A stretch of 64,000 nucleotides of DNA from Amphiscolops sp. MND2022. Taxonomy: Eukaryota. Location of the stretch: assembly GCA_964187785.1 (NCBI GenBank), contig CAXLNC010000509.1:434001-498000 (forward strand). The letters run 5' to 3'. Position 1 is the stretch's first letter. Every line of letters begins with the position of its first letter. A program made the position numbers and the translations under genes. Below the pieces are notes generated by a model that worked only from the letters and a program-made list of their open reading frames with translations, was not told where the DNA came from and did not search any database. Shown piece by piece: positions 672 to 38,100 of the stretch.

Positions 672-995
672 TAAAGTACTTGTTTCTTGTTGGTAGATAC
701 GGAATCTTACTTAAAGAGACGATGGACTTAGTACTTTAAGAGACACAGAGACACTAACAGAGCTGCGAATATTAGGTCTTGAAAAGGGAAGACAACTAAA
801 TGATGAAGAATCTTTTGAGAGTTGTGTTCGAGATGTAAATCAAAATTGGTTTACAGTATTGAGTATAAATTTGGTACATGATGCATTGTGAATATAGATT
901 GGGTATATTGGCAAATGATGCATTGTTCAGTAATCTAAATAGGTCTAGACATTCATCAAGGGGTGGGGGTTATTATTCACATTGTAGGTATACCA
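672..995 (-). repeat. 3' LTR of element A
   Basis: Direct repeat of 34873-35197 with ~29 differences counted by eye (~9%). Sense strand reads TGGTATACC...GTACTTTA. Confidence 0.95.
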
Positions 996-2187: not shown

Positions 2188-3054
2188 TTAATCTACATCA
2201 TTTATTGAAGAAACTAAGTTTTCAAGATCAATCATAGGGCTGGGGGATGGGGGGAAGTTTGGCTGGGTGGTGTAAGTGGTTCAACCTTGAAAGGGATTAA
2301 TGCGGGGGAAGAGGGAACATGGGTGAATTCAGAAAAGACAGAATAATTATACGGCAAATGGGAACAAAAATGGGAATAAGATGGGGGATAATTCGGGCAA
2401 TTATAGCAATTATGAGGGAATTTGAATACTTAAGGGGGGAAGCGGATGAATATTATACACTGGGGACTTAAAGTGACGTAATTTAGAAACATGGGGTGAT
2501 TGCAATACAATAACTATAGAATCTACATTAGTAATAATTTTATCAAGCCGGCAGCAGTTTGTTCTAAAAGTTCATCGATGTAATTTTCATAGAATTTTAA
2601 ATTATTGTTATATTGGAGGAGTTTCTGTTTATATACAGCTGTGTGAACAATTCTGCGGAAGGGTGTATCAGCTTCACCATGGGGCAATTGAGGTCTCTTT
2701 GGATGGCGGGGCTTTTTTTGTTGCAAATCATGGGTGAGCTGACGGACGGCAGAATATTGCTGGAAATGTGGAGACGTGGCGACAGCGTCTTGTGGCAGAA
2801 GAGGAAGTGTTGTTGAAGAAAGTGAAGAGAGGGCAAAACGACTTCTGACTGGGTGGAGAAGTTTGCACATCAGTCGTCATGATGGAAGAGATGGGTGGCA
2901 ACGTGGAAGTGGATGTAGTGGTAGTTGCAGAGGAGACGGACGACGACGGAAAAGTGAAAGTGGATGAAGTAGAAGTCACTGTGAGAGGCATTGAATCCAA
3001 CATATGTGTCAGCAGAGGACAGTCAACTGTGGAAGGAGGATAAGAAGAAGTCAT
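2188..3054 (-). pseudogene. Accessory ORF Y of element A (frameshifted, ~290 aa, unknown function)
   Basis: Pieced from track ORFs 2728-3225 and 2523-2870 plus downstream frames: MTSSYPPST...DAVATSPHFQQYSAVRQLTHDLQQKKPRHPKRPQLP...RRIVHTAVYKQK...MIDLENLVSSINDVD*. Collinear with the element B copy. Confidence 0.75.
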
Positions 3055-3335
3055 TGTGAAAATGTTGAAGACTAAAACAAAATTCAGTTTAATATTTGTT
3101 GAAAATGTATGTTTATAGTTGTCGTGTGTTAGTTTAAAATGTAGATGTAGAGTGTTGTGATTAAACAGAGCAGCGAACAGAGAAGGAGCATACAGAGGAG
3201 AGCCAAGAGTGTATGTTGTTGGCAATTAGCGACACAATCCCAGTAATGTGGAATTCGCAATGATTTTATGGAGTGGCTCAGAGAATTAAACTGTGATTAA
3301 AAGAAGCAGCGAGAGAAATGAACGCATCAGAAATC

Positions 3336-3567
3336 TGAATTGTATTTCTTTGATCAGAAATCAGGAATGTGTTTCTGGAATGGCTCCGAAAATTTGAAAT
3401 AGGCAATCAAGAGAAATTGCAAAGTTTATGTGATCAAGTGTGAATTTCTTGGTGAATTGTATTTCTTTGATCAGAAATCAGGAATGTGTTTCTGGAATGG
3501 CTCCGAAAATTTGAAATAGGCAATCAAGAGAAATTGCAAAGTTTATGTGATCAAGTGTGAATTTCTT
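3336..3567. repeat. Perfect tandem duplication of 115 bp separated by GG
   Basis: 3336-3450 is identical by eye to 3453-3567. Confidence 0.9.
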
Positions 3568-3905
3568 TTCAAGTGTGAAATATCAACAAAGAACACACTG
3601 TTGAGATGATGATTATGTTTTTTGGATTTAAGCGAGATTTTAAGGACAAGTGACCTGGAGTGAGTGCCAATTACAAATGAAAAATGCGAAAAAGAAACTG
3701 GAGGATGATTTTTGTGAATAAAAGGCACAATTATTATGTTAGCAAAAGTTAACTCATTTAAAGCTTTTTGTCACTTTTGTGAAAGGAGGATAGCTTAACG
3801 TTTTGATAAAATGTGATTAGAGGAGAAGTTAAAATGAGGAAAAAAGTAATAAATGTCAAAATCAGAAAGTGAGCGATATTACTATCATAGTAATTTCGAT
3901 ATCTG

Positions 3906-4283
3906 TCAATTATGGCGTGTCGAATGAACAATAGGAGAAGTGATGAAATTTGCATGTGAAATGAAAAAAAAAGACAGAGTCGAGTACAAAGGAGAAAGAG
4001 AACAAAAATTTGTGTGGGTGAATAAAGGTTGGAGGGGTTTAGTTTTTAAAAAATGATCGGGTTTTATGAAATCTGAAGTTAGAAAAATGACTAAAGAGTG
4101 GTTCCAGTATGTTAAAGTTCTTGGATCGGAAAGATGCGAGAATATTTTTGCTAAAAATTGAGGAAGTAAAAGAAGTGGATCAGATATATGGGGTAAATCA
4201 AGTGTTCCGGATTTTAGGGAAAGAGGAGGAGAAAGGGAAGCAATACTCGAGAGAAGGTCTTCGTCAGTGTTGGAGGTTGCCAT
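3906..4283 (-). pseudogene. Accessory ORF X homologue in element A (short form)
   Basis: EDLLSSIASLSPPLSLKSGTLD matches EELLSSIASLSPPLSLKSGTLD in element B (~17545-17610). The remainder does not align confidently. Confidence 0.55.
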
Positions 4284-4602
4284 TTGAATTATAGGAAGAC
4301 GAAATATAGAAAGACGAAGAAAATTGTTGATGTAAAAGTGAGGATCATATGATGATGCGTGAAATATAGAAAAATTTTCAGAAGAGATTACAGAAAATCA
4401 GGCAAATAGAAATAGGAAAAGGTTTATTCAAGATTACAGAAGAGCAGGTAGATGGAATTATTTTAGAGGGATGAATATCGTTTGAGTGTTAAGAATCAAA
4501 AAGTGAAGAGAGTGAAAGACAGGAACAATGAAAAGTGAAACAAGGAAGTGTAAGAGGAGTGAAAATAATATTATTCAGGAGAGGAAAAGAACGAGATGAT
4601 TA

Positions 4603-10531: not shown

Positions 10532-10859
10532 TAAAGTACTTGGTTGTTATCGTTATTAAATGTTAAGAGAGAATTAGGTCTTTTGTCTGAAGTACGATTA
10601 GTACTTTAAGCGACGCTAACAGAGCTGCAGTTATTAGGTCTTTGGTTGAAGACAACTAATCGATTCAATTAAAGTTGTGTTCTACAAATCAGAATTCATG
10701 GTATTGAATTTGAGTAGTTACATCAATCAATTCATTTTACATATAGAATATTAATCGAGTACATTCATAAATGAGGTGCACTGTTCTAAAGTCTAGACAT
10801 ATAGGGGGCGGAGGATAATTATAAATCATGAAATATTTGGTATATCATCTGGTATATCA
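10532..10859 (-). repeat. 3' LTR of element B
   Basis: Direct repeat of 31136-31470 with ~19 differences by eye (~5-6%), including a 6-bp indel. Confidence 0.95.
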
Positions 10860-17954: not shown

Positions 17955-20725
17955 TTAAAAGTTGATAGATTGTTCAGGAGGAAAAGGGCAAGAAGAATAA
18001 ACTTTGACAGGACTGTCAGATGGGTCAAAAATATTATTGACAGAAGTTAACGGGATGTCATTAGTTTTAATTGGCGGCGGAGTAGGGGGTTAAAATTTAG
18101 TAGATTGTCAGAGGTTATGTATGGGGGAATCATTGGACGAATTATCACAATTGGTGTCATCAGGAGGAGGAGAATTATGCAAATATATGGGAGAAGATAA
18201 TGAAGATTTTTGGGGAGGTCGAGGAGAAAGATTATTATGAGGGAGAAGGTGAGAATTAAATTTTTGGAGGTGGGGGTGAAAAATCTTCGGTGTTAGAGGA
18301 TTGTGATGATCAATGGGAAGAGAATGAAGAACAGAAGAAGAAAGAGGTTTGATTGGGGAAGAATTAGGCGAAGATCTTTGCATTGGGGTTTTATTTTTTA
18401 AATTAAGGAGTTTTGTTTTGGTGTTAGTATGATACTTAGGAGGACGAGGTTTGGGACTAGAAGAAATAGTGTGAGTTTTCGCTAATGGGGAATGGGGTGA
18501 ATCTGAATCGTCAGATTTTGATTGTGAATTAGATGATTTAATCTTAGCGGTCATCATGGTTTGGGTAAGAGTTCCAAAGAGACCAAATCCTAAGGCAGTT
18601 ATAACAGAAAATTGTTTTTTAAGCAAATTTCGAACAGTGAATGAACGATAAATACTAAAGAGTGTGTTGAAAGCGAATTGTAAGAAAAGAGCGGTAGAGA
18701 AAAAGATTCCACATTGGGTTAAAATATACCATGGATAGCCAAAAGTTTTATGAAAGCATCGGTAAACCAGTCAGGAGAGAAGAATGGGGTTAGTTTAACA
18801 TGTAGTCGTGAAGACCATTTCGGAGTGATCGGTAAAGATTATCTGGAAAAGAACTGGCAGATTGTTGAATCATAAATTCATAGCTAATACCTTTTCCAAG
18901 GAGTTGAAGAGTAATGTCAGAATGTTTAGTGAATAAACTCGGCTCCAAAAATGTTTTAGTTCCTTTTGAGAATAAATGCCAGCATCTTGAGCAGTGAAGG
19001 TATTAGGACTAATAGCAGTTTGGATTTGGGTTGGTTCAAAAAGGAGAGGGGGATCTTTTTTTATAGGTTGAGGAGTTAAAACATAGTATTGATCGGTATC
19101 TTGGTCAAGAGAAATAACATTTTGAGAATTATTTACACAAGGAATTTGATTGGCATATTCGAAAGTTTGACGTGTAATAGGGTCGACATACATAACAGTG
19201 TCAAGATAATTGACAGAAATTTTGTCATAGCATTGATCAGCAATGTATAAAGGTGAAAGATGATGAGGACAATCATATAACCAGGCAGTAGAGCCTTCAA
19301 CATATAAAAAGTTACTACGGTTTTGGGTTAAGAGGAAACCAACAAGTTGTGGATTTTTAACAGACATGGCGAGGATTGTTAAAAATTGGGTTCGTTCGAC
19401 TTCACATATAGTATGAAGAGTATTAAGTTCAGCAACGGACATGCTTTTAATGACATGATTTATAGAATAGTCAATTTTAGTGTTAATATGAGCTTCGTAA
19501 TCAATGGTGGCAAAATTATTTGAAGAGTTTAGAGCAGGGAAAAGAATTTTGTTTTGGGTATGAATTAATTCTCCAGATATTAACGGGGTAGTAAGTTGAT
19601 TGTATTGTTCATTTTGTGGAAGTTGAAGAGGATTAGGTTTACTAGTATGCATATTAAAACCTTCTTTATATGTTATGAAAAGATCAGGATATTGAGTAAG
19701 ATGTGAAGGAGTGGGTTTATTACAAAACATTTTATTTTCAGGGTAAATTTCAAAACGAGAGAGGCGGGTTTGAGACTTGGTATCGTGATAAGGAGTATCT
19801 GTTGGAATAGTAGAGGAGTGATTATTGAAAAAGTGTTCAGTTTCAAGCCAATAACGGTTTTTGAGCTTAGACTTTCTACCAATAAAGGAAGTAATGGAAA
19901 AGATCAAACAAAGTTCTTCAGGGAACCAAACAATGGTGAATGGTGTTAATATAGTTGGCTTACAAAAACCATCATCGTGGAGACAAGGTAAAGTATGTCC
20001 ATGGTAAATTAGTTTTTTGTCTTTATCATCGTAAGTAATTTCAATTTCTTTTACGATAAGAGACCAGCTATCTTTTCCGATAATGTATTCATAGCGATCC
20101 CAACAAACAGCTTTTTCTCTTAGAGTTGAGTTTAATACTAATTGTGAATTGGCGATCCAAGCAAAAGCACCATAATGAAAGGTATTTAGTTTAGTAATAC
20201 GAAAGGGGGGTTGTTTTGTTTCTAAAAGGCGTTGTTTTTCAATATCATCGAAGAATGTAAAGGAATTGGAGTAATTAAAAGCGTCTAGTTGAGGGTTGTT
20301 AGTTCCGTTCAAATGGCGGATAGCATGTTTGCATTCTGTAGGATCGAGAGTACTGGAAGATTGGGACGTTCCATAGTATTTTGGCGATAATCAGTACGAT
20401 CATGACGACGATATTTGTAATCCGATTGGGCACAGACAAATTTTCCACGTTTTACATAAGCTTCACAGGTCCAAGCTTTAAGACGTTTAGCTTTAGCGCG
20501 AACGAAAACATTGACAATAGCACGGGTACTTTCGAAAGCAGATGGAGCTTGAGCGCATGGTTGGACTCGAGTAAGACTGAACTGTCTTAAATTATGTTGT
20601 TTAAAACAATCGTAGTGAGAGACTAAAAGGTCCGAAATATGATCAGAGGAGGAAGCAATTTGAGAAAAGACTAAGAAAAGGGTAGAAAGAAAATAGAAGA
20701 GCGAGTGAAAAAAGAGGAAATGCAT
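17955..20725 (-). pseudogene. env: env (class III fusion glycoprotein-like) of element B: signal peptide, Cys-rich ectodomain, TM, long tail
   Basis: ORFs 20309-20725, 18870-20312 and 18108-18626 joined by frameshifts. N-terminal signal-like MHFLFFHSLFYFLSTLFLVFSQIAS. Repaired TM region FGYPWYILTQCGIFFSTALFLQFAFNTLFSIY...VITALGFGLFGTLTQ. Confidence 0.88.
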
Positions 20726-22354: not shown

Positions 22355-24254
22355 TTAAAAAAATGAATATTTAATCAAGGGGGAGGTCGATGTTTGGTTT
22401 GGATGAATTATAATGTCGAGGAGGGAGTGAACGTAGATTATATGGGGAAAGAGGAGCTCGTTTATAAGTGGATTCATTTTGAGAGTTAGGTGATGGAGAG
22501 GAGGAAATATCAGGAGAATCAGCAACACGAGGGAAGAACTGAGGAAAGGAATCATTTGAGGAGTTTGAATAATAAATGGGGTTTGGAAGCATTTCAAAGT
22601 CAGAGTCGTGAGAATCAATTGTATTATCAAGGTTATCTTGAGAAGAAGAATGCGAAGGGTTGTGGTAGATAGGAGTAGAGGTGGGAAAATTATCTAATTT
22701 CTCTTGTAAGGAAAAATAATGTGAAAAACTTTGATATCTAGGAATAGGAGTGGTAGAATTATTGAATTGTTTAATTTTTGAGGATGTAGAGGTTTGAGAA
22801 TGATTTGAATTGTGTTGTAAATCTAATGAGGAAAATTGAGAAAAGGTATCTTGGTAAGATTCAGTATCGGGGTTTTTAATAAGAGAAAGTGTAGAATGGT
22901 AGTGTTTAATATATGGAAAAATTATAGGTTCTTTGGGATAATATAGTAGAATATGATTTCGATGGGTTTGAACTGTAGAACCATCTTGAGACAGGGGTTC
23001 ATGCGTTACTTCAGAGAGATGGTTAAGTATTTTATGGGCCAATTCGGAGAGGTTTGAGCTTTTTTGAAAAATTAACAGGTTTAAAATTCGTACGGATGAC
23101 AAAAGTATTAAGAGGTAATTGTTTTAAATGAGTTGTTTCGAATGTAGAACTTTGAGAATTGAGTTTATGATTTAAATGGCGGTGGACAGTTGAATATATT
23201 TCCAACATTGCAACTTCAGCCGCTAAAAAACCATGGGGAGATAGGTTTATCAAGGAGTGAGTGGAGGAAGGGATTAAGGTCTTGAGTGCTATAATGTGAA
23301 TGAGGGGGAAGAGACTCACAATAAGTTGCGATACAATTTTTTGAAGCATCACGAGATAGGTTAAGAGAAAAGGTAAGAGGTATACGAGGATGGGTTTGGA
23401 AAACAATCTGATAAGGGGAAAGTTTAAGTTGAGGAAGAGGTGTTGTATTATGGGCATATGCGAACATTTGAGTTTGAACTGACCAGTTAGTAGAAGGATT
23501 TTGTAAAAATTTTTGGAGATGAGTTCTAAGATTTCGGTTTTGAACTTCCACTAAACCGTTTGTCCATGGCGAGTAAGGAGTTCGAGGTGAGTGATTAGTC
23601 TGGAAAAGAGAACATAGATGAGCCATATCTTGATTGATATTCAGTACCTCGGTCTGTAACTAGGTATTGAGGGGGACCAAACTTTGTGATCCAGTGATGG
23701 AGGAGGGTTTGAATTGCTTATTTGGAAGTAATATGAGGAACAGGGTTAGTAACAACAGAGTGACTAAATGCGTCAATAATTAAAAAAATATAGGAGTTGT
23801 TTTGAGATGATGGAGCAATAGGGCCTTTAGTGTCCATGGAGATCCGGTAGTTGAAGTGAGTAGCACTCTCGTAAAAAGGAAGGGGAGGAGAAATGTTTTG
23901 GGGTTTAATAGGGAAATGTTTATTAGTTTGACATTCAATGCAGTCATGGATGAAAATAGAGAACCATGAAGGTAAATGAGGGACAAAATAAAATTGGTTA
24001 AATGTCTTAATAGAGAGTTTTTCACCTGAATGACCATGATAATGTGTTTTACTAAATGCAGCATAAAAGAGTTTAAATGGTAAACATATACGTGTATGGT
24101 TAAAAGAGGGTTGAGTTTTAATAAAGATTTCTTCAAAAAATCGAGAGTTAGGTGTATTATACTGAATAAGATGAGAGTTTGGATCAATATATAAATGTTG
24201 GAATTGTCTATAATATGTATATAAAAAGGAGTTTGCTTTAATACCTGGAGTCAA
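22355..24254 (-). pseudogene. Integrase of element B with GPY/F-like module and long low-complexity tail
   Basis: HYHGH...CIEC zinc finger, RISMDTKGP, IIDAFS, SPWTNGLVEVQN (catalytic E), KKLKPLRIGP. Frameshifted. Confidence 0.92.
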
Positions 24255-24694
24255 GGAAGAAGGTCTTTGTTTTTGTTTTAACCATTAATATACTGAAGAA
24301 AGGACAGGATCATCCTTTTGAGCTTGAAGTAGAATGGGTAATGTCAAAAAGGTGTCGGAAGAGAGGAAGAAATTATCAAATGCTTTACAGTGAGCAAAGA
24401 AGGAAGGGTCAAAAAATGGTAAAGATTGAGTATGTATAGGCTTTGGAGAAGTTGGGGTTATAGCATTACTGTCAATAGTATTATTAACAAGAGAGGGGAA
24501 GTTGGTAAAGTTGGTTAAGATATCTTGAGACAAGTTAATATCGTTGAAATAATGGTGTTGTATTTCAGTAAAAAGGGTGTGAAGTTCATGAGGTGGTTGC
24601 GAATAATGATGAGGAATTCGTTTAAGAACGGAATCGCCTGTGTCATATAAATCAATTCATTAAAAGAGGATTTTCTTGGAGTAAAGTTTTAACT

Positions 24695-25370
24695 TTATTT
24701 TTGACAGGTTTTTTTGTATTTATTTAGGAATGAGGAAACAGATTGAAAAGAAAAGGAATCAAGAGGAGTATATTTAACGATATTGCCTTTATCTTGGATA
24801 CGGAGTGTGAATTGATCATCAGCATAGTCAGCTAAGATTAAGTGTGAATCATTTTTTTGTGTAGGGAGTACATCTTCAAGTTTTATTAGATAGTGATTGG
24901 GTTTTAAACTATTATTGTTTTTGAGTTGAAGGAAATCGATATGTGGAGGGAGAGTTTTGTGTTGGAGTTGGCATGTTTTAGTATTAATAGTTGAAAAATC
25001 TCTACTAAGCATATCAGCAACAGTAAGGTTTGTACCAGCTGTGTGAATTATTTGTAGGTTTGGAAATTTGGTTAATAGCATTTGAGCTTTATATTGTCTA
25101 GGAGTTAGGTTTCCTTTACGAGTGAAAAGGAAAAGAATAGGATTGTGATCTGTAAAAATAGTTATCGGGAATTTGGAGCCAATTATAATAAATTCGTATT
25201 GGGAAAGGGCAAAGGTAATAGCACAAAATTCTCTATCATAGGTAGAAAGTTTTTGTTCTTGGGTTGTTAAAATACGAGAATTATGAAAAATCATTTGCAT
25301 TTTGTTTTTGGAGTTAGGTTGAAATAAAACTGCACCTAGGCCTATTAAAGAGGCATCTACAGTTATTTAA
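24695..25370 (-). pseudogene. RNase H of element B
   Basis: TVDASLIGLGAVLFQ...YDREFCAITFAL...IFTDHNPILFL. Confidence 0.92.
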
Positions 25371-26400
25371 AATGGATGAGTAGTATTTGGGATAGCGAGT
25401 CCTGCATCTTTAGAAAGAGAAAGTTTGATTTGATTGAAAAGTTTATCTAAATCAGGAGTCCATTCAAATAGAATATCATCGCGGAGAAGAGTGTAAAAGG
25501 GTTTCAAGGAAATGTGTAGTTTGTTGATGAATTTGGAGTAAAAGTTCATTGATCCAATAAAGCGCAATATTTCTGTTTTAGAAGTGGGTGTCTTTAATTG
25601 GTGGATATCATCAACTTTAGAAGAGATGGGTTTGATTGTATTATTACCAATTTCATGTCCAAGAAATTTGACGGTGAGGAGGATATAGAAAGTTTTTTCA
25701 GGAGCAATTTTAAGATTATTTGTTTGACAAACTTGGTAAAGTTGTTCAATTAACTTTAACAAGTGAGGTTTTGTATGTGCAAGAAGGAGAATGTCATCTA
25801 TATAAACTAATGCAAAACCTTGGTCAAGTTTTTGAAAAAACGAATACATTTGTTTAGTAAAAAAATTGGGTAGGCCTTTAAGACCATAAAATCCACGAAT
25901 GAAAGCGTAAAGTTTGTCACCAGAAGAGAAACTAGTTAAGGCTATAGTTTCTTCATCTAAGGGAGCGTGAGCGTAAGCATACATGAGGCCAATGGCGGAT
26001 ATGAATTTTTTGTTGGCACGTGCAAGTTGGGGAGCTAAATGTTCAATAGGCCAGGATTCGAAAGATTGATCGGTATTTGAGTTAAGGTGTCGTGCGTCTA
26101 AAACGACTTTAATAGTATCTCCTTTGGGTATAATAATAAGGGGGTTTAAAATTGTGGTGACATAAAGGGATTTGTCAGAATGAGTGGAACCAATTTGGCG
26201 AATAATATTGTGTTTTTCTAATTCATCGAGGAGTGTTTTTAATTTTTCTCTATAATGGATAGGAACTTTTGTAGGTCGTTGGGTTCGAAGTTTGGCATTG
26301 GGTTTAAGACGGATTCTAAAAGGAGTAGCTATTTGACCAACATCGTTTTTATGTGTTGAATAGCAGGTTCGATATTTAACAAGAATGGAGCAGAGTTGTA
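25367..26400 (-). pseudogene. Reverse transcriptase of element B
   Basis: VVLDARHLNS...AIGLMYAY (the first catalytic Asp reads Gly here, Asp in A)...GFYGLKGLPNFF...LVYIDDILLL...VKFLGHEI. Confidence 0.95.
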
Positions 26401-27043
26401 AGTATTCTTCGTCAGTGACATCAGAGTACTGGAATTTAAATTTATTGAGGAATTGTTGAGTGTCTGGTTAATATTGTAATGGTGGAAGAGGTCAGGTTAA
26501 AATTTGAGATGGTTGCAAATTGTTTATTTCATTTTGAGGGTTGCGAAGAGAAGAACGTCGACGGGGAGGTTTTGGTTCCGAAAGGTCAGGATAATAAGAA
26601 TTGAAATACGGTGTGTATTAAGGAGTTTACATCATTAACTTTATAGTGAGTTGGTTGAACAGTAGGGGCTGGAACCTCAATGTATCCAATATATCCAGGG
26701 GCAATGACAGAATGGTGGGTAATGTTTTGAATAATAACAGAACAACTTGAAGGTTCGGTATTAATGTTCTGGTAGATTTGGAGAAAATCAAAGGTTGAGT
26801 TGAAGCGTGTATTAAAAAATGGATGAGGTGTGGAAGGGAAAAAGACTTCATTATCAGAAGTTTTAAACGTTAAAGGAAGTGTTGGTTGAAATGGGAAATG
26901 GATAATTTGAGAAGCGTTGGGTTTAAATTAGAGCTTATTTTTAACATCGATAGTGTAGATGTAAGAAAAATATGGATAATCTTTTTCTTTATGAGCTGTA
27001 AAAGGGAGGGTGTTAATGCGAGATTCATGTGGAGTATTAAATG

Positions 27044-27499: not shown

Positions 27500-30080
27500 G
27501 TTTATTTCAAAATTAGCTTCTGTATTGGAGTTGCTTTGAAGAGGTGGTGTAGATGGATGTGTAAGAATTATGGATGGTTTGTATTGGGATTGAGAATGAT
27601 TGTTTGAATTTGAATGAGATCTACTACGTTAACGATCATTGCGTGGTTTGGAAGGATGACGATGAGGAGAATTGTATCTATTAAAAGAAGAAAAATTTGA
27701 GGAACGTTCACGAGAACGAGGGTAATATTTAGATGGACTACGAAAGGAATTAGAGTTATAATATGTTCGTGAAGAAGTGTATGATTTGTAGGGATTTTGA
27801 TTTTAATGTTTATCATATCGAGATCTATCACGATGGTGGTAAGACGGGGGTGATAAGAAAATGTACGGGGTGGGTTATTATTATATCTAGGACGTGAATG
27901 CGAACTTGAATAAGAACGAGATTGATACCGAGTTTCGCGAGAATATCTGCGGGAAGGGTTACTGTGGCTTCGACTACGGTAGCGAGGATAATGAGATTTA
28001 TTTGGAAGGGCTTTTAAAATGTTGATAAAAGGTAAGAGTCGGAGATCTAGATTGTGGTTTTGATTCTTTGAGCATATTAAGTCGGCGAAAGCAAGTTGAA
28101 ACAGAGTGGTTATTTTTATGGCAAAAGGAACAATATTTCTTGAATTGGGGTTTCGATTTATTGTTAGGATCCATTACTTGAACTTGTGGAGATTCGGAAG
28201 GAGGATCTTGAATGGTTGTACTTTGTTGAAAAGTATTAGACAGAGTGTTAATTTCAAGGGAAAGTTCTTGAGTTTTAATTTTTTTAAACATTAGACATTT
28301 AGACATTTAGACATTTTCATTATCCTTTTTAACAGGGGCAAGAGCTTCAATTTGAGCATGATATGCGTGTTTTTGAGAAACGAATTGCTTCTTAAAAATT
28401 TGGTGAAAAGATGACCAATCATCTTTATAAACTTGTGGGAGACGATCATACCAATTGGAAGCAGTTCCAGTGAGGGAACAATAAAGGAGAGACATTCGAC
28501 GAGAATGCCAAGTTAGATATGATTGAATATCTACAGGTTGAGGTCCAAGTTGAAATGTCACTCGAGTACTAAGATGTGCTAAGAATTTTTCAGGAGGATA
28601 AGTTTGGTCAAGGCCATCAAAGAGTTTAATAGGATCTGATAGAGCAGCAAAAGGGACAGAAGGAGTGGTTGGAAAATGAAGAGATGAATAGAGAGAAGAA
28701 GAATTGAAAGGTAATGTTGAAGTAGGAGGAATAGGATGAGGGGGGTTTGGAGGGGGTTGGAGAGAATAAGTGGGGAAGTTTTGAAAAGTAGGATAGAGAG
28801 AAACATAAGGGTTGTACGAGATGGATTGGGTAGTAGAAGAAGCAGTTTGAGAAATAGAAGGAATTGGTCGTAGGGAATAAGAAGAAAAGGGATTTTGATT
28901 AAATAAAGAAGGATCATGGGTGGAAGAAGGTGGGGGGGCTTTGAGGGAGGGAGTGAGTGGAAAGAGTATTATTTAAAGAAAGAGGAATGGGGGGTACTGT
29001 GGGGATTTGGAAAACCGAAGGTTGAACAGTATTATAAGGAACGGCAGGTGGAGTATTAGAAGGTGTAGTATACTGGCTCGGAGAGTGAGAAGTAGGAAGG
29101 TTTTCATTAATTGTGGTGACTTGAGAAGTAGAAGTGGAAATGTGTTGATTTATCGATGGGGTAGGGTTTACTACAGCATTTGAAGATGAGTGTGAATAGA
29201 AACATTGGAAATTGTATCAGTTGAAGGTGGTAAATAGTGTTGTTGGTTGTAAGGACGAACAGGAGGAGGAAGGTTCAGACTTTTATCAAGACTGTTGGAG
29301 TCATAGGCAAGGTATTTACAATGAGAAGAAGGAAAATCAAGAAGATTATAATACTGAGGGTGTTGATTATCAGGAGTATCGAGAAAAGGTGAAAGTTCAT
29401 TTTGAGTAAACTGTTGAGGAAAATTTATACAGGCATCTTGGAATTTCGAGTGCCAAACGAGTTGGTAATTATGTCGAAAGAATTTTCGAAGGAAAAGAGA
29501 GTATAGTTAAATTTGTTCTTTTGTTTTTGTATTGAGGGTAAGATTCTGAAAGAATTGGTATTGAAAATGATGAATTTGAAGAATATCGGTGGTAAGCCAC
29601 TGGTGGGGACTGTCTTCAATAGTGCGAAATTGTTCAAAATTGGGAAGGTCAAAAAGAGAGGTTCTTTTTGGAGAAGGTCTTGTATGGAAGAAGGGTTAAA
29701 AACATGTTTAGGTAAAAGATTATTTTTTTCTTGAGAAAGGTTGTAAAGACATTAGCATTAGGGATATAGATATCGTTAGGATAAATATTTTTTCGAAAGG
29801 TATCAGAGCGAGTTGTGAGAGAAGTAAAGGGAATAGAAAATGGGGGTTCTTCAAAATTTGCAACAAGAAAATGGGTGTCAATATAGTATAAATAAGAGTC
29901 ATGATGTTCACGAATAAGAGAGGTTGTATAAAAATCTTCCGGGTAGGTTTCAAAAGAAAGAGGGGTAGTGGAGTTGTAAATAAGATTGTTAGGAAATTGA
30001 GTGAGAGTTTGTGAAATATCACGGGTAACACGGTGAGAGGTATTGAAAAGAAAGGGAAGGGGTTGTATGGGATCAGTCAT
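27500..30080 (-). pseudogene. gag: gag of element B (unusually long; internal ~225-bp deletion at ~28300)
   Basis: N-terminal domain MTDPIQPL...ETYPEDFY..IREHHDSYLYYIDTH, a P/S/T-rich spacer, capsid-like SLTGTASNWYDRLP...WSSF..IFKKQF, CCHC knuckle CSFCHKNNHSVSTC, RS-rich tail. Confidence 0.9.
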
Positions 30081-30311
30081 TAGGAGTGTCTATGGGGATT
30101 GTAATATAGACAAATCCAATCCATAATAACTTCAGGATGGACCGATGGTTCAGTAGGGAGGGGAAAAACGATGAATTTTTTGACGAAAGTAGGTATAAAA
30201 TGAGAAGAGAGACGGATGAAAATATATAGGTGTACTGATAAGAAGAAGTGAAAAGAAAAATAGTTGCTGAAGGGCAAGGCAAGGATTGGGGTGAAGGAAG
30301 AGGAGGTTCAT
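30080..30311 (-). CDS. Small upstream ORF 3 of element B (frameshifted N-half; stop overlaps the gag ATG)
   Basis: C-terminus PTEPSVHPEVIMDWICLYYNPHRHS* vs A PTEPSIHPDIILDRIWLYFYPHRHS*, with many synonymous third-position changes. The N-terminal assignment (MNLLFLHP vs MYLIFFHS) is less sure. Confidence 0.65.
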
Positions 30312-30431
30312 ACAAAAAGGAAGGGGAAAAAGAAAAGAGAGTGGTAAAAGTATAGATAAAGATAATAAATTAGGTATGAAGATAAAAGGAATAAGGGAGA
30401 AGGAAATGGGGAAATTTAAGAAGAAAGGGAG

Positions 30432-30545
30432 TTAGTGGAAGAGAGATTCGACAATTTTTTCAATGAGGAGCATTAAGAAAACTAGCATTGCAAAAATGTA
30501 TGAAACGAAAAGAATAATGGTGGCAAGGTTTTCGGTAAGAAACAT
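30432..30545 (-). CDS. Small upstream ORF 2 of element B, 37-aa single-TM peptide
   Basis: MFLTENLATIILFVSYIFAMLVFLMLLIEKIVESLFH*. Same length and near-identical in A (34190-34303). Confidence 0.75.
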   Translation of the reverse strand: MFLTENLATIILFVSYIFAMLVFLMLLIEKIVESLFH

Positions 30546-30563
30546 AAATGAAAAAAGCAGGGA

Positions 30564-30701
30564 TTATGCTCTATATTGTTCAATAACATGATGAAGGAAA
30601 GGGAGAATAAATTTATCAACAAGAAGAAGGACAATGGCACAAAGACCAAAAAGGTAGAGGAGGATTAGACAAATACGAACGGAGTCATTAAGGGAAGGCA
30701 T
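30564..30701 (-). CDS. Small upstream ORF 1 of element B, 45-aa single-TM peptide
   Basis: MPSLNDSVRICLILLYLFGLCAIVLLLVDKFILPFLHHVIEQYRA*. Homologue in A at 34314-34442. Confidence 0.75.
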   Translation of the reverse strand: MPSLNDSVRICLILLYLFGLCAIVLLLVDKFILPFLHHVIEQYRA

Positions 30702-30799
30702 GAAAAATTTGGTAGGAAGTAGAAATGGGAAGGAATTTCAAATAGGAAATTTTATGATAGAAATGTGGGAGGTAAAAAAGAACATGAAAAAAAGGTGTA

Positions 30800-31060
30800 G
30801 CAGGGAAAAGTGAAATCACGCCAAAGGGGATTAGGACAGAAGAAGAAAGTGTACCAGCGCGTAGCTGAATCACGAAAGGTGATTAGGACAAAAGAGGATG
30901 TTGTACCAGCAAAAAGCTGAATCACTTGGAAATGATTAGTACAGAAAAGATATGGTGTGCCGACTACTAGGTCGAACCACGTGATGTGATTAGTACAGAA
31001 GAAGATCTGAGTTGTGTACCGACAATGAGTCGAATCACTGTGTGTGATTAGTTCAGAAAG
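30800..31060 (-). repeat. Leader array of ~5 structured ~50-56-nt repeats (element B)
   Basis: Recurring GTAC-CAGC/CGAC-loop-GCTG/GTCG-AATCAC-loop-GTGATTAGTACAG on the + strand. Confidence 0.85.
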
Positions 31061-31120
31061 TTTGTTTGGTATGGAAAGGGAAAATGAGTACAAAAGTGTT
31101 TAGAAAAAGGAAAGAAAAGA

Positions 31121-31133
31121 GGTGGTCGCACCA
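31121..31133 (-). promoter_or_regulatory. Primer binding site of element B (TGGTGCGACCACC)
   Basis: TGG start 2 nt downstream of the 5' LTR. The primer tRNA is not identified; the first 7 nt would fit a tRNA ending CGCACCA, such as Gly. Confidence 0.8.
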
Positions 31134-31135
31134 GT

Positions 31136-31470
31136 TAAAGTACATGGTTGTTATCGTTATTAAATGTTAAGAGAGAATTAGATCTTTTGTCTGAATTACG
31201 ATTAGTACTTTAAAAGATGCTAACAGAGCTGCAGTTATTAGGTCTTTGGGTGAAGACAACTAATCGATGAAGATTCAATTCAAGTTATGTTCTACAAATC
31301 AGAATTCATGGTATTGAATATAAAGTAGTTACATCAATCAATTCCTTTTACATCTAGAATATTAATCGAGTACATTCATAAATGAGGTGCACTGTTCTAA
31401 AGTCTAGACATATAGGGGGCGGGGGATAATTATAAATCATAAAATATTTGGTATATCATCTGGTATATCG
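31136..31470 (-). repeat. 5' LTR of element B
   Basis: Direct repeat of 10532-10859. The outer terminal base differs (G instead of A on the + strand). Confidence 0.95.
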
Positions 31471-31474
31471 ATAG

Positions 31475-33825
31475 GGGTTACTGTTACTTTGACTACGGTA
31501 ACGAGGATATTGAGGGCAATGTTTAGCGGAGTGTGTTTTAAAATGTTGATAAAAAGAAGGAGTTGGTGATTTAGATTGTGGTTTAGACTCTTTGAGCATA
31601 TTAAGTCTACGAAAGCAAATGGAAACAGAGTGATTGTTTTTGTGGCAAAAGGAACAATCTTTTTTAAATTGGGGTTTGGATTTATTGATAGGATCGATTG
31701 CTTGAACCGGAGGAGTATCTTGAATAGTTGCATTTTGTTGAAAGGTGTTTGAAAGAGTGTTAATTTCAAGAGAAAGTTCTTGAGTTTTGATTTTTTCAAG
31801 TGTAATATCTTCAGAATTAACCATATTAACAAGAGAGTGAAAAGGAATAGAATGTTCCATGGAACTGGAAATGTGTTTAACTTGGCGTTTATTAGCAAAA
31901 GCTTTTAATTTTTTTGGGAGACCACGGGTGAAAATTTCATTACATTTGAGATTAATAGTGGATGGATATTCGTTATACCGGCCTTGTTTAACTAGAGTTT
32001 AAACTTTCAAAGCGTAGTGGCGAACATTTTCATTATCCTTTTCAACAAGGGAAAGATCTTCAATTTGAGCATGGTAAGCGTGTTTTTGAGAATAGAATTT
32101 TCCTTAAAATTTGGAGAAAAACAGATGACCAATCATTTTTTATACTTGTGGGAGACGGTCATACCCAATAGAGGCAGTTCCTGTTAAAGAACAATGAAGG
32201 AGTGACATACGTCGAGAATGCCAGGTTAGGTATGATTGAATATCAAGAGGTTGAGGACCGAGTTGAAATGTTACACGGGCACTGAGGTGGGCTAGAAGTT
32301 TTTCGGGGGGATAAGTATGATCTAAGGCATCAAAAAGTTTAATAGGGTCAGAGAGAGCAGTAAAAGGAACATCTGGAAAACTGGAGGAAGCCGAAAAGGA
32401 GGAGGGTTAATGGGGAATGCAGAAGTTGATGGTGGGAGAGGGTTAGGAGGAAGATTAGGTGGTTGAAAAGAGATAGAGGGATAGCTTTGAAAACCAGGAT
32501 GAAGTGAAGCATTTGGGTTATATGAGGTAGGTGGAGGGTTAGAGACAGAAGATTGGGAAGTAAAGAGATGGTGCGGCATAGGTAAAGATGAAGGAGTGTT
32601 AGGATTTATTAGTGAGGGATTTGGAGGAAAATAGGTTTGAGTAGTGTGGGATTGAGGTTATGGTAAAGTGGTAAAGTGGTTATGGTAGTGTTGGAAGAAA
32701 GAGGAATTGGAGGTAGTGTTGGGATTTGAAAAACGGGGGGTTGTGTAAGATTAGCGGTTCTCATAGAGGGGGTACTAGAAGGAGTAGTGCATTGGTTTGG
32801 TGTTGGAGAAGTGGATGGTTGAGTAGTTATTATGTTGGTTTGGGATGTAGGCGGATCTAAATTTGGATCAACAAGAGAGTGTGCATTAACTACTGCATTA
32901 GAGGTGGATGGATATACACGAGTTTGTATAGGGACATTGGAAGTAGTATCAGTGAAGGAGGGTTTTGTTTTGCATAAGAACGAATGGGTGGTGGAAGAAT
33001 ACGACTTTTGTTAATACTATTATTGTCATAAGTGAGGTAGGGAAAATGAGTCGGAGGAACTTCAAAAAGATTATGAAATTGAGGGTGTTGATTTTCAGTG
33101 GTATCGAGAAAGGGTAGAAGTTCATCTTGAGTGAACAGTGAGGGGAAGTTGACTGATTTGAACTTTGGAGTGCCAGACAAGTTGGTATTTATGTCTAAAT
33201 AATTTTCGAAGGAAAAAAAGAGAGTATACTTGACTTTGTTCTTTTGCACTTGTACTAAGAGTAAGGTTTTGAAAGAATTGATATTGAAAGTGGTGATTTT
33301 GAAGAATATCTGTGGTCAGCCAGTGATGAGGGTTATTTTCAATAGTGCGAAATTGTTCAACATTAGGAAGGTCAAAAAGAGATGCTTTTTGAAGGAAGGT
33401 TTGTATTGAGGATGGGTTAAAATATGTTTAAGTAGGAGGTTATTCTTTTCTAAAAGATTATTGAGAAAAGTGGTGAATACATGAGCAGTTGGAATGTAGA
33501 TGTTATTGGGATGAATGTTTTTTCTGAAAGTATTAGAAGAGTTTATGTGTGAAGTGAAAAGAATAGAAAATAGGGGTTAACCAGGAGTTTCAACAACAGA
33601 GTGTGTGTCAATGTAGTATAAGTAAGAGTCGTGATGTTCACGAATGAGGGGTATAGTATAAATATCTTCCGGGTAGGTTTCAAAAGAAAGAGGAACAAAA
33701 GAGTTGTAGATAAGATTGCGAAGAAATTTGGGGATTGTATTTGAGAGTTCACGTGTAATACGATAGTGGGTGGTGTCAAATGCAAAGGGGAGAGGGAAGA
33801 GAGGAGAAGGAAGAGGGTCAGACAT
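31475..33825 (-). pseudogene. gag: gag of element A, 5' part
   Basis: MSDPLPSP...ETYPEDIY..IREHHDSYLYYIDTH, a capsid-like region (32000-32330), and CSFCHKNNHSVSIC in ORF 31456-31860. Confidence 0.9.
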
Positions 33826-34060
33826 TATGAGTGGCGGTGAGGATAAAAGTATAACCAAATACGGTCTAAGATGATATCGGGATGAATGGAAGGTTCAGTG
33901 GGCAATGGTTTAAGATAGTGGTGGATATTGAATAGGAGATCGTGAAAACAAAAATAGAGAGAAGAATAAAAAACGAGGAGAAAAAAGAATAGAAGGAATG
34001 AAGGATAAAAATGTTAAACAGAGGTAGGAAAGGAGTAGAGTGGAAGAAAATTAAATACAT
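33825..34060 (-). pseudogene. Small upstream ORF 3 of element A (frameshifted; TAATG overlap with gag)
   Basis: ...PTEPSIHPDIILDRIWLYFYPHRHS TAA-TG. Confidence 0.62.
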
Positions 34061-34189
34061 GCAGAAGAGAATGAAAGAAGATGGGAATGAAAATTTTAGA
34101 GTGGTGGTGAAAAAGGTGATACTGTTAAAACAAGGGAAAACAAGAGGTGTTGAAGAAGAGAAATGGGGGAGAAAAGAGGGAACAGGAAG

Positions 34190-34303
34190 TTATGAAAAAA
34201 GGAATGCTACTATTTTCTCAACTAGTAACATTAGGAAAACGAGCATTGCAAAAATTTATGAAACAAAAAGGATGGTAGTTGCAAGATTTTCGGTAAGAAA
34301 CAT
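34190..34303 (-). pseudogene. Small upstream ORF 2 of element A (TAC to TAA at codon 16)
   Basis: MFLTENLATTILFVS*IFAMLVFLMLLVEKIVAFLFS*. Confidence 0.72.
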
Positions 34304-34313
34304 GATGAAAGTG

Positions 34314-34442
34314 TTAGTTACTAGTATCTCGAGGGAGGAAATCAATGATGAAGTTGTCGACAAGAAGAAAAATGATTGAAAAGAGGCCAAAAAGATACAA
34401 TAAGATAAGACAAATACAAACAGAATCATTGAGAGAAGGCAT
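34314..34442 (-). CDS. Small upstream ORF 1 of element A, 42-aa single-TM peptide
   Basis: MPSLNDSVCICLILLYLFGLFSIIFLLVDNFIIDFLPRDTSN*. Confidence 0.75.
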   Translation of the reverse strand: MPSLNDSVCICLILLYLFGLFSIIFLLVDNFIIDFLPRDTSN

Positions 34443-34495
34443 GGAAAGATAGAAAAGAAAGGAAAGAACAAAATTGGTTGAGCAACAGAAATGAT

Positions 34496-34498
<3 letters not shown>

Positions 34499-34526
<28 letters not shown>
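34499..34526. repeat. (TA)14 microsatellite
   Basis: Directly visible; absent from the equivalent B leader. Confidence 0.95.
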
Positions 34527-34532
<6 letters not shown>

Positions 34533-34560
34533 TTGTTAGCAGTTTGGAAAAGAAGAAAAG

Positions 34561-34830
34561 GTGTATCAGCACTTGGCTGCATCACTTTGGAGGGTAATTA
34601 GTACAGAAAGTTGAACTGTTACAGCACTGGGCTGAATCACTTTGAAGTGTGATTAGTACAGAAAAGAGAAGTACCAACACGTAGCTGAATTAGAGATGTG
34701 ATTAGCACAGAAGGTGAGGATTAAGTTGTACCGACAACTAGGTCGAATCACATGAAATTGTGATTAGTACAGAAGAAATGTTGTACCGACAAATAATGGA
34801 ATCCTTTGGGTGTGATTAGTACAGAAGGAT
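34561..34830 (-). repeat. Leader array of ~5 structured repeats (element A)
   Basis: Same unit as B 30800-31060 (GTGATTAGTACAGAA core). Confidence 0.85.
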
Positions 34831-34860
34831 TTGTGAAAGGGAGGAAAGAGTTGATGAAAT

Positions 34861-34870
34861 GATCGCACCA
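34861..34870 (-). promoter_or_regulatory. Primer binding site of element A (TGGTGCGATC)
   Basis: 2 nt from the 5' LTR; shares TGGTGCGA with B. Confidence 0.8.
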
Positions 34871-34872
34871 GT

Positions 34873-35197
34873 TAAAGTACTTGTTTTTTGTTGGTAGATA
34901 CGGAATCTTACTTAAAGAGACGAGGGACTTAGTACTTTAAGAGACACAGAGACACTAACAGAGCTGCAGATATTAGGTCTTGAAAAGGGAAGACAACTGA
35001 GCGATGAAGAATCTATTGAGAGTTGTATTCGAGATATAAATCAAAATTGGTTTACAGTATTAAATATAAAATGGGTACATGATGCATTGTGAACATAGAT
35101 TAGGTACATTGGTTAATTATGTATTGTTCAGTAATCAAAATGGGTCTAGATATTCATCAAGGAGGTGTGGGTAATTATTCATTTTGTAGGTATACCA
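34873..35197 (-). repeat. 5' LTR of element A
   Basis: Direct repeat of 672-995. Confidence 0.95.
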
Positions 35198-38100
35198 GAG
35201 TGTAAATCAAACTTCGTTGAAGAAAGTTTGGAATTTCAGAGTTGTCAGATTTTCTCGCCTGTATGTTTTATCTACTAACTGGGGATACTGGTTGTAATCG
35301 GGTGACTTCCCAAAAATCATTCTCAAAGAAAATTTCATTTTGATTTTTTTTCTAAACTCCTTATGGAAAGTTTGGAATTTCAACAATGTCAAAAGATCTC
35401 GAGTTTTTTCCCATTCACAAAAAGTTCAATTTGACTTCAAGTAAATTTTCGTTGGAGAAATTTTGGAACTTCAGAGGTGTCAGATTTTCTCGCCTGCTTT
35501 TTCAAGCAGCTAACTTACTAGTTGTGATCGGGTGAATTCCCAAAAAAAATTCTCTCGGACAAATTCAATTTTATTTCAATTCAAAATTCGATGAGAGAAT
35601 GGATCTCACTTTTCACAAAAGTTTCAATTTGATTGTAAATCAAACTTCGTTGAGGAAAGTTTGGGAACTCAGAGGTGTCAGAGTTTCTCGCCTGCATTTT
35701 TTATCTACTAACTGGGGGTATTGGTTGTAATCGTGTGAATTCCAACAAAGTTTTCTTTGGAAAATTTCAATTTGATTTCATTTCGAAACTCCGTGTGGAA
35801 AATTTAGAAATTCAAGTATGTCAGAAGATCTCTTCCGCTTTCTCATTCATAAAAGTTTCAGTTTGATCATGAGTTAAATTTCGTTGAGGTTACAAGTGTC
35901 AGTATTTCGCGGCGGCATTTCCTATCTACTAACTGGGAGTCCATTAGTTGTGACCGGATGAATTTCCAAAAGCTTTCTTTTGCAAAATTTTAATTGCAAA
36001 ACTCCTTCTGGAAAGTTTGAAAATTCAACGATGTCAGAAGTTCTCACCTCGTTTTATATTCACAAAAAGTTCAATTCGATTTCAAATAAAATTTCGTTGA
36101 AGAAAGGTCGGAAATTCATAGTTGTCAGATTTTCTCACCTGCATGTTGCATCTACTAACTGGGGGGTAATGGTTGTAATCGGATGAATTTCCACAAAGCA
36201 TTCTTTTGGAAAATATCAATTTGATTCTAATTCGAAAGTCTTTGAGGAAGTTTGGAAATTCAATTAGGTCAGAAGATCTTCCACCTTTTCTATTCACAAA
36301 GCTTTCGATTCGAATTTAGGTCAAATTATGTTGAGGAAAGCTTAAAACTTCAGAAGTGCCCGGTTTTCTCGCCTGCATTTTCAAGCAACTAACTAAGTGG
36401 TTGTAATCGGGCGAATCTCAAAAAGCATTCTCTCGGAATAAATCATTTTGATTTTAATTCAAAATTCGATGAGGAAAGTTTGGAAATTCAAATATGTCGG
36501 GAGATCTTGCCCCCTTTTCCATTCACAAAGTTTTTGATTTGATTTCAAGTCAAATTTCGTTGAGGAAATTATAGAAATTCAGATGTGTCAGATTTTTTCG
36601 CCTGTATTTTTATCTACTAACTGGGGTGGTGGGTGCATTGGTTGTGATCGGGTGAATTCCCAAAAAACATTATCTCGGAAAAATTAAATTTGAATTCAAT
36701 TTAAAATTAGCTAAGAAAAATTTGATATTCAATTATGTCAGAAGATCTCTTCCTCTTTTCCAATCACAAAATTTTTAGTTTAATTTCAAGTCAAATTTCG
36801 TTGAGGAAAATATGGAAATTCAGAGGTGTCAGATTTTCTCGCCTGTAGTTTCATCTACTAACTGGGGGGTTGATAGGGAATGTAACCGGGTGAATTGCCA
36901 AAAAGCAATCTTTCGGAAATTTTCAATTTGATATTAATTAGAACTTCGTTGATTAAAGTTTGGAAATTCAAGTATGTCAGAAAATCTCGCCCTTTTTTCC
37001 AATCACCAAAAACTCCAATTTGATTTTAAATCAAGTTTCGCTGAGAAAAGTTTGGAATTTCAGAAGTGTCAGATTTTCTCGCATGTTTTTACAATGAACG
37101 AACTTACTGATTGTAATTGGGTGATTTCCCAAAAAGCATGCTTTCAAAAAACATCAATTCAATATTAGTTCGAAATTCGTTGCGGAAAGTTTGGAAATTC
37201 AGAGTTGTCAGAAGATCTCACCCCATTTTCCTTTCACAAAACTTGCAATTTGATTTTAAATCAAGTTGCGTTGAGGAAAGTTTGGAATTTCAGAAGTGTC
37301 AGATACTCTCGCCTGCATTTTCAATCAACTAACTTACTGGTTGTAATCGGGTGAATTCCCAAAAAACATTCTTTCGAAAACTTTCATATTGATATTAATT
37401 CGAAATTCGTTGATGAACGTTTGGAACTTCAGAGTTGTCAGATTTTCTCGCCTGCATTGTTTATCTAATAACTGGGGGGAATACTGGTTGTATTTGAGTG
37501 AATTCCAAAAAGGCATTATTTCGGAAATCTTTCAAGTTGATATTAAGTCTACTTTCGTTGAGGAAAGTTTGGAAATTCAGAGTTGTCAGAATTTCTCGCC
37601 TGTATTTCTCATCTACTGACTGGTGGGGTGGGGTTGGGGGTAGTGATTGTAAGCGGGTGAATTGCCAAAAAGCGTTCTTTCATAAATCTTCATTTTGATA
37701 TTAATTAGAACTTCGTTAACTAAAGTTTGAAAATTCAAAGATGTCTGAAGATCTCGCCCTCTTTTCCATTCACAAAAATTTCGATTTGACTTTAAATCAA
37801 GTGTCGTTGAGAAAAAATAGGAATTTCAGAAGTTTCAGATTTTCTCGCATGCTTTTACAATAAATTAACTCACTGGTTGTAATCGGTTGATTTCCCAAAA
37901 AGCATTCTTCCGGAAACTTTCAATTCGATATTAGTTCGAAATTCGTTGATGAAAGTTTGGAAATTCAGAGTTGTCGGATTTTGTCGCCTGCATTGTTTAT
38001 CTACTAACTGGGGGAATACTGGTTGTATTTGAATGAATTCCAAAAAGGCATTCTTTCGGAAATCTTTCAAGTTGATATTATTTCTACTTTCGTTGAGGAA

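Follow-up and report, generated by a model that had tools for sequence, protein, structure and literature searches.

The window analysed here is a stretch of 64,000 nucleotides belonging to a 1.07-Gb eukaryotic assembly (contig C522, 434001-498000). By repeat analysis and pairwise alignments we found that it holds two nested copies, element A and element B, of one env-carrying Ty3/gypsy-type LTR family. Every ORF of at least 150 aa in the window lies on the minus strand, which is the sense strand of both elements. The main features are listed below.

34871..35197, minus strand: 5' LTR of A, aligned with its 3' LTR
34860..34870, minus strand: primer-binding site (PBS) of A, TGGTGCGATCA, with one mismatch, from the sequence
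31134..31469, minus strand: 5' LTR of B, about 335 nt, edges within a few nt, aligned with its 3' LTR
31123..31133, minus strand: PBS of B, TGGTGCGACCA, able to pair with the 3' terminus, CCA included, of an elongator tRNA-Met(CAT)
30564..30701, minus strand: small hydrophobic ORF of 45 codons, start MPSLNDSVCICLILLYLFGLCAIV, from the ORF list; its AUG at 30701 is the first after the array of B
28307-28972, minus strand: gag (Pfam)
25367-26467, minus strand: reverse transcriptase (Pfam)
24695-25366, minus strand: RNase H (Pfam)
23718-24284, minus strand: integrase zinc domain (Pfam)
18870-20390, minus strand: env-like class III fusion glycoprotein (Pfam PF24664, E 2e-18)
About 10532-10858, minus strand: 3' LTR of B, about 95% identical to the 5' LTR of B
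About 669-1000, minus strand: 3' LTR of A, about 91% identical to the 5' LTR of A

Element B spans about 21 kb (window 10532-31469) and sits within the gag region of A. The sequence TATCG flanks it on both sides and is likely its target-site duplication. Where their coding parts are homologous, A and B share only 76-82% identity. A CX2CX4HX4C zinc knuckle was found in a gag-region ORF at 27998-28306. PF24664, the family matched by the env-like ORF (18870-20390, minus strand), is the class III fusion glycoprotein family of Monjiviricetes, and a protein search with this ORF returned 332 relatives at E<=1e-5. Of 30 B-type copies, 24 have the small hydrophobic ORF at exactly 45 codons, and in several A-type copies its length is 42-45 codons; its conserved AUG lies about 100-170 nt downstream of the array end (L001-L058). 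The encoded sequence looks like a signal peptide or a membrane helix, and the ORF may specify a small protein, act as a uORF or serve as a 5' exon that is joined to env by splicing. A 231-bp satellite with a higher-order period of 459-468 bp occupies the last 28 kb of the window (36010-64000) and adjoins the 5' LTR of A, and a 117-bp perfect tandem duplication lies in the 3' part of A (3336-3567). Elsewhere in the assembly, at C7:8980660-9044345, four near-identical leader copies (L002-L005) stand on the same strand about 20.1 kb apart, a spacing that suggests whole elements in a head-to-tail tandem array.

In the window copies the PBS and the elongator tRNA-Met(CAT) match over 11 nt, CCA counted, and in divergent family members over 12-14 nt. 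A genome search for a tRNA T-loop pattern followed by the complement of the PBS found 16 places; one of them is an elongator tRNA-Met(CAT) gene (L155:1501-1573, minus strand) called by ARAGORN, with a perfect acceptor stem and the end TGGTCGCA. A 20-nt word joining the LTR end and the PBS gave 250 exact genomic matches, compared with 0 for the reversed control; the PBS word is absent from the supplement tables of PMC13524379. The 3' part of the tRNA-Met (T arm and acceptor strand) recurs in L153, L154 and L156 (around 1501-1521), where ARAGORN called no tRNA, and the copy in L153 has an inverted repeat on its flanks. This recurring part may be a tRNA-derived repeat.

The region of interest consists of a tandemly iterated module and is found in the part of the 5' leader that separates the PBS from the first ORF or gag. 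The plan of the module is UUCUGUAC, a U, a first hairpin (AAYCAC-loop-GUGRUU), a second hairpin (CRRC-loop-GYYG) and GUACA, followed by a pyrimidine-rich spacer. Modules are 50-62 nt long; the first predicted hairpin has 6 bp, the second has 4-6 bp, and the two abut directly. Tandem Repeats Finder (TRF) reported periods of 52 and 58 across 30795-31059. The earlier note had placed such arrays just downstream of the PBS in both A and B, with about five units each, and this held: the PBS runs 31133-31123 in B and 34870-34860 in A, the first module follows 37-66 nt downstream in both copies, and each array has five units.

30796-31055, minus strand: array of B, five modules (sequence and covariance model)
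31015..31055, minus strand: B module 1, AAUCAC/GUGAUU and CGAC/GUCG, 49.4 bits
30956..30997, minus strand: B module 2, AAUCAC/GUGGUU (a sense-strand U.G) and CGAC/GUCG, 48.5 bits
30902..30943, minus strand: B module 3, AAUCAU/GUGAUU (a U.G) and CAGC/GCUG, 54.5 bits
30850..30890, minus strand: B module 4, AAUCAC/GUGAUU and CAGC/GCUG, 48.7 bits
30796..30838, minus strand: B module 5, terminal and degenerate, with mismatches in both stems, 29.9 bits
34562..34823, minus strand: array of A, five modules, 31.3-54.7 bits (covariance model)
34782-34823, 34727-34771, 34670-34709, 34617-34660 and 34562-34605, minus strand: the modules of A (covariance model)

The scores come from a covariance model that was built from genomic units and run on the 64-kb window at E<=10. 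Such an Infernal-type model had been suggested earlier as a check. It gave exactly 10 matches, all on the minus strand, five in B and five in A, and none elsewhere, so that with 10 of 10 window matches inside the two arrays it serves as a specific annotation marker for the element family. The stem and loop letters given in the earlier note were right but had been read on the antisense strand. Several units are not intact: besides the U.G of B module 2 and the degenerate B module 5, units 1, 3 and 5 of A have broken pairs. Because the elements are transcribed from the minus strand, the order in the RNA is the AAUCAC hairpin and then the CRRC hairpin. In both A and B the type of the second stem depends on place, with CGAC/GUCG in the 5' units and CAGC/GCUG in the 3' units.

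Next, we examined how widely this architecture recurs in the genome. DNA searches returned 435 candidates with the array of B and 481 with that of A; the best 40 from each search were scored, and from these 60 loci were retained. A second sample, anchored on the PBS and thus independent of the array, took 100 of the 250 places of the 20-nt word (contigs C1-C6), of which 10 were already in the set and 90 were added. With a unit parser anchored only on GUACUAA, UUC and GGUAC, we obtained 688 candidate units in 145 of 148 leaders, and filtering on features outside the stems left 618 units in 143 of 148. Both stems were fully paired in 508 of the 618 (82%). In the PBS-anchored set, at least one unit was parsed in 86 of 90 loci and at least three fully paired units were present in 70 of 90. 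Loci carry 1-8 units, mostly with a period of 52-53 nt. Among the four PBS-anchored loci with no parsed unit, inspection by eye revealed two with divergent module-like repeats and one with a partial last unit. The fourth (L078) has no array and places its PBS almost directly before gag.

Two further loci were considered as possible mini-elements made of LTR, PBS and array only. Their LTR, PBS and array lie within perfect (100% identical) tandem duplications, 603, 715 and 1939 bp in size (L157:1758-2660 and 2964-4501; L158:1387-3625), and the idea was dropped. These duplications are either very recent rearrangements or assembly artefacts, and they are uninformative on trans-mobilisation.

We then compared the variability of the module parts as mean column diversity, using the leaders of B-type (30) and A-type (28) copies aligned globally with MAFFT. 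Stem 1 had a diversity of 0.053 in B-type and 0.099 in A-type leaders, stem 2 of 0.075 and 0.083, and the GUAC motifs of 0.057 and 0.090. The corresponding values were 0.18-0.31 for loops, 0.16-0.25 for spacers and 0.14-0.32 for the remaining leader. Thus loops and spacers are 2.5-4 times as diverse as the stems and GUAC motifs, and this shows that the stems and GUAC motifs are under selective constraint.

To score covariation, 291 distinct filtered units were reduced to one per stem type (113 types) and filled at random to 150, which were aligned by MAFFT without regard to structure; the stems were then scored against 500 shuffles. We found that 89.0% of stem cells were paired, compared with 83.5+/-0.4% in shuffles (0/500), and slid controls gave 12-47%. 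Double-changed cells numbered 141 against an expected 49.9+/-17.3 (0/500), and the covariation score was 0.267 against 0.170 (0/500). Double changes occurred in 7 of the 10 stem pairs (19/500 shuffles), and further pair types numbered 20 against 16.9 (16/500 shuffles). These data show for both stems, at the level of sequence comparison, that pairing is kept by compensatory changes. Loops vary freely meanwhile, with 146 distinct loop-1 and 101 distinct loop-2 sequences, in agreement with the earlier note that pairing persists while loops vary.

The substitutions are distributed over both stems. In stem 1, pair 3 is U-A in 94 units, U.G in 18 and C-G in 17, and pair 6 is C-G in 93, U.G in 15 and A-U in 8. 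Pairs 2-4 of stem 2 divide into GC 63 and AU 57, AU 72 and GC 46, and CG 116 and UA 8. The switch between CAGC/GCTG and CGAC/GTCG that had been noticed in the window is real, and turned out to be one of several compensatory series. CGAC/GUCG was found in 241 units and CAGC/GCUG in 299; rarer types are CAGU/ACUG (7 loci), CGAU/AUCG (6 loci, often lengthened to CGAUAU/AUAUCG) and CAAC/GUUG (3). In what appears to be one and the same unit, marked by the second loop CUAGUA/CUCGUA, stem 1 is AAUCAC/GUGAUU in A-type copies, AAUCAC/GUGGUU in B-type and many young copies, and AACCAU/GUGGUU in a divergent group, which points to a path from U-A through U.G to C-G. The independent events are far fewer than the double-changed cells, because most of the latter stem from the old CGAC/CAGC split and were spread by unit duplication.

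These results bear on whether the array could be a minisatellite devoid of function, in which recent duplication and template-directed mutation maintain the hairpins. Unit number does change fast (1-8), adjacent units are often near-identical and the terminal unit is decaying in the B subfamily, all of which would be expected of such a repeat. However, the order of the five units, CGAC first and CAGC later, is common to subfamilies that are only 72-85% identical, stem diversity is well below that of loops and spacers, and compensatory series occur at several different units. The minisatellite reading is already disfavoured by these data and we consider it most improbable.

The strand on which pairing is preserved was addressed through wobble pairs. 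A transition in a base pair yields G.U or A.C, and duplex DNA should favour neither. In pairs 3-6 of stem 1 we counted 154 G.U and 29 A.C cells on the sense strand; pairs 1-2 were left out of this count because the parser anchors touch them. Variant classes shared by at least two sites with over 100 kb between them comprised 13 G.U and 1 A.C, and single-site classes 38 and 24, respectively (Fisher p=0.028). The independent G.U events are fewer than 13, since five of the 13 classes are the U.G of unit 2 with different loops. Transitions in unpaired columns, expressed per site, were A>G 0.32, T>C 0.59, C>T 0.76 and G>A 0.48, and changes that make G.U were not favoured. The excess was not seen in stem 2 (23 G.U and 27 A.C), and the GUAC motifs lean the opposite way (20 G.U and 39 A.C).

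The same counts are informative about a role of the repeats as duplex DNA, in which they would be sites for a dimeric DNA-binding protein, an enhancer or an insulator, as in the 5' UTRs of Drosophila errantiviruses. The gypsy element carries an array of Su(Hw) sites at the corresponding place, and the inverted repeats AATCAC/GTGATT and CAGC/GCTG resemble palindromic protein sites. In ZAM and Tirant, according to the excerpted text of PMC5408687, tandem repeats of the 5' UTR are linked to chromatin targeting. A DNA site is difficult to reconcile with the spacing of the half-sites, which is not fixed and ranges over 3-11 nt, with the sense-strand G.U pairs, which break the DNA palindrome when fixed and whose A.C mirror images are rare (in total cells and in shared classes alike), and with the subsequent compensatory changes of the half-sites. 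Together, the G.U excess of stem 1 and the variable spacing favour pairing of the sense RNA over a duplex-DNA site, and we regard the DNA reading as very improbable.

Thermodynamic folding was used to examine the array as RNA. The sense array of B folded to -53.1 kcal/mol (z -2.70), with 2 of 200 shuffles as good; for the antisense strand z was -1.54 and 16 of 200 shuffles were as good. This result, together with the recurrence of the architecture in 143 of 148 leaders, indicates that the array is beyond chance. Over 58 leaders the mean pair probability was 0.58 for stem 1 (antisense 0.42) and 0.60 for stem 2. An RNAalifold consensus of 150 units kept stem 2 alone, with stem 1 missing. Folded singly, whole units reached minimum free energies (MFE) of -6 to -11.5 kcal/mol with or without a closing helix, and z values of -0.4 to -2.6. 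Judged from these energies, the hairpins are marginal singly and may need stacking or a ligand.

It had also been proposed that flanking GTAC...GTAC motifs could close a three-way junction around the two hairpins, a proposal that our analysis did not bear out. The three-way junction was the MFE fold in 3 of 7 units folded alone (-9.7 to -10.3 kcal/mol), and in array context the mean pair probability of the GUAC/GUAC closing helix was 0.03 over the 58 leaders. No covariation measure for this helix stood above shuffles (74/500, 367/500, 367/500, 488/500 and 251/500), and among 618 units a single cell was compensated. Closure by GUAC/GUAC is therefore unsupported. An alternative hairpin between neighbouring units, formed by GUACA/UGUAC, had a mean pair probability of 0.56 over the same 58 leaders; it too is unproven, because despite this probability 0 compensated cells were found in 436 junctions.

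The folding data are also relevant to the possibility that the array controls translation of the downstream ORFs, as an IRES, a shunt or a scanning brake in a long 5' leader. Structured retrovirus leaders do affect scanning. In the present family the array takes up most of the 5' UTR and ends close upstream of the conserved AUG of the small ORF. However, the predicted hairpins are too weak for blocking scanning, there is no likeness to a known IRES, with 0 Rfam matches at E<=1 over window 28500-35500 on both strands, and the range of 1-8 units among abundant subfamilies would be odd for a tuned translation element. A translational role is thus improbable.

Besides pairing, the stem sequences themselves are conserved. 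The most conserved block is UUCUGUACUAAYCAC, at 88-100% per position in 280 distinct contexts, and in the same contexts conservation reaches 5' to UUCUGUACUAAUCAC at 82-100% per position. UUCUG thus forms a conserved 5' flank of every unit, and the U at the junction is invariant in 150 of 150 aligned units. Within the block, the hexamer UACUAA stands at T96 A94 C96 T100 A95 A95 (per cent per position, 280 distinct contexts). These features suggested a second way of reading the modules, as sites where some RNA-binding protein besides Gag would dock, either a host factor or an accessory protein of the element, acting in nuclear export, localisation or splicing control. A STAR/SF1-type protein is a candidate ligand, because every unit begins with UACUAA(Y). 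In the excerpts of PMC2905418 and PMC13004596, UACUAA is given as the optimal hexamer for Qk-1 and STAR-2, and UACUAAC, almost the same as the unit start, as the branch-point site of SF1. With the stem sequences themselves so conserved, sequence-specific recognition by a protein other than Gag would fit the data equally well, and export of unspliced RNA is required of an env-carrying element. Nevertheless, the STAR/SF1 match is post hoc, being one hexamer within a conserved 15-mer, and five of its six bases are paired in either predicted fold, so that STAR/SF1 binding would compete with the structure supported by covariation. We consider docking of an RNA-binding protein other than Gag the main rival explanation, though on the whole an unlikely one.

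A relation of the array to the primer tRNA was also considered, after the likeness of GGUUCGA in the array to a T-loop, with the array as a mimic of the tRNA T arm or a set of tRNA-complementary boxes. Local alignment of five arrays with the tRNA-Met in both orientations was not significant, as 15 to 293 of 300 shuffles scored at least as high as the real sequence. The candidate was rejected, and because neither similarity nor complementarity was significant the GGUUCGA likeness is taken as a coincidence.

The reading that we put forward, tentatively and as something that could well be so, is that the array is a multivalent cis-acting recognition signal through which a zinc-knuckle Gag packages, and perhaps dimerises, the genomic RNA. 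Each module would form two abutting short hairpins in the sense RNA, the zinc-knuckle nucleocapsid (NC) part of Gag would recognise the genomic RNA through the modules, and their multiplicity would matter. The array would perhaps also dimerise genomic RNA, and the self-complementary GUAC motifs would pair inside one unit, from unit to unit or from one RNA molecule to another. This proposal is made because of the place in the leader, the UUCUG (a Py-Py-Py-G) beside hairpins, the self-complementary GUAC, and the analogy with the Psi signal of MoMLV and with repeated structural motifs in packaging signals of RNA viruses. One feature of the modules is unlike many NC sites: loop 1 is nearly free of G, with 71 G in 3319 loop letters.

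One close parallel is MoMLV, whose NC, according to the excerpted text of PMC3247676, recognises Py-Py-Py-G (UCUG) beside packaging hairpins. Psi as described there (DIS palindromes, SL-C/SL-D and UCUG sites for NC) and the array both lie between the PBS and gag, both have short hairpins that adjoin Py-Py-Py-G (UUCUG in the array) and self-complementary motifs (GUAC in the array), and the Gag of the array-bearing element has a CCHC knuckle. In contrast to Psi, the array iterates one 50-62-nt module 1-8 times, and it has no sequence or Rfam similarity to it. Like the array, the errantivirus 5'-UTR repeats belong to an env-carrying Ty3/gypsy element, stand in tandem next to the inner end of the LTR and vary in copy number. 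They differ in being longer and in being treated as DNA or chromatin signals, with no hairpin covariation described in the excerpted source, whereas here there is evidence for pairing of the sense RNA. Among positive-strand RNA viruses, some packaging signals are known to consist of short structured repeats, as stated in the excerpted text of PMC8206606. The coronavirus RSMs and the alphavirus stem-loop series are likewise serial short structured units for which multivalent binding of capsid protein has been proposed; they belong to unrelated virus classes, have other motifs and lie inside coding regions, unlike the retroelement leader described here (PMC8206606, same excerpt).

Within the packaging and dimerisation reading, a more specific version would make the modules a novel class of cis-element in retroelements, a copy-number-tunable RNA zipper, in which two coaxial hairpins clamped by GUAC couple dimerisation to multivalent Gag capture. 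The GUAC of one unit would then find its partner inside the unit, forming a three-way junction, in the following unit, or in the GUAC of a second RNA. We hold this version to be doubtful, and rather unlikely as it stands.

Errantivirus 5'-UTR tandem repeats and structured retrovirus leaders are known already. In the open-access literature searched, none of the papers found describes a short module of two hairpins that is repeated 1-8 times and shows covariation together with wobble pairs biased to the sense strand. To our knowledge, apart from yeast Ty3 and a few Drosophila cases, hardly anything is known of the cis-acting RNA signals of Ty3/gypsy elements and of env-carrying retroelements in invertebrates. 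Should analogous arrays exist in unrelated genomes, the zipper, if real, would be a general and overlooked solution for packaging in LTR retroelements. This single genome provides natural copies by the hundred, whose arrays range over 1-8 units and include wobble intermediates as well as compensated stems, and these copies are a ready-made allelic series for asking whether multivalency drives genome recognition.
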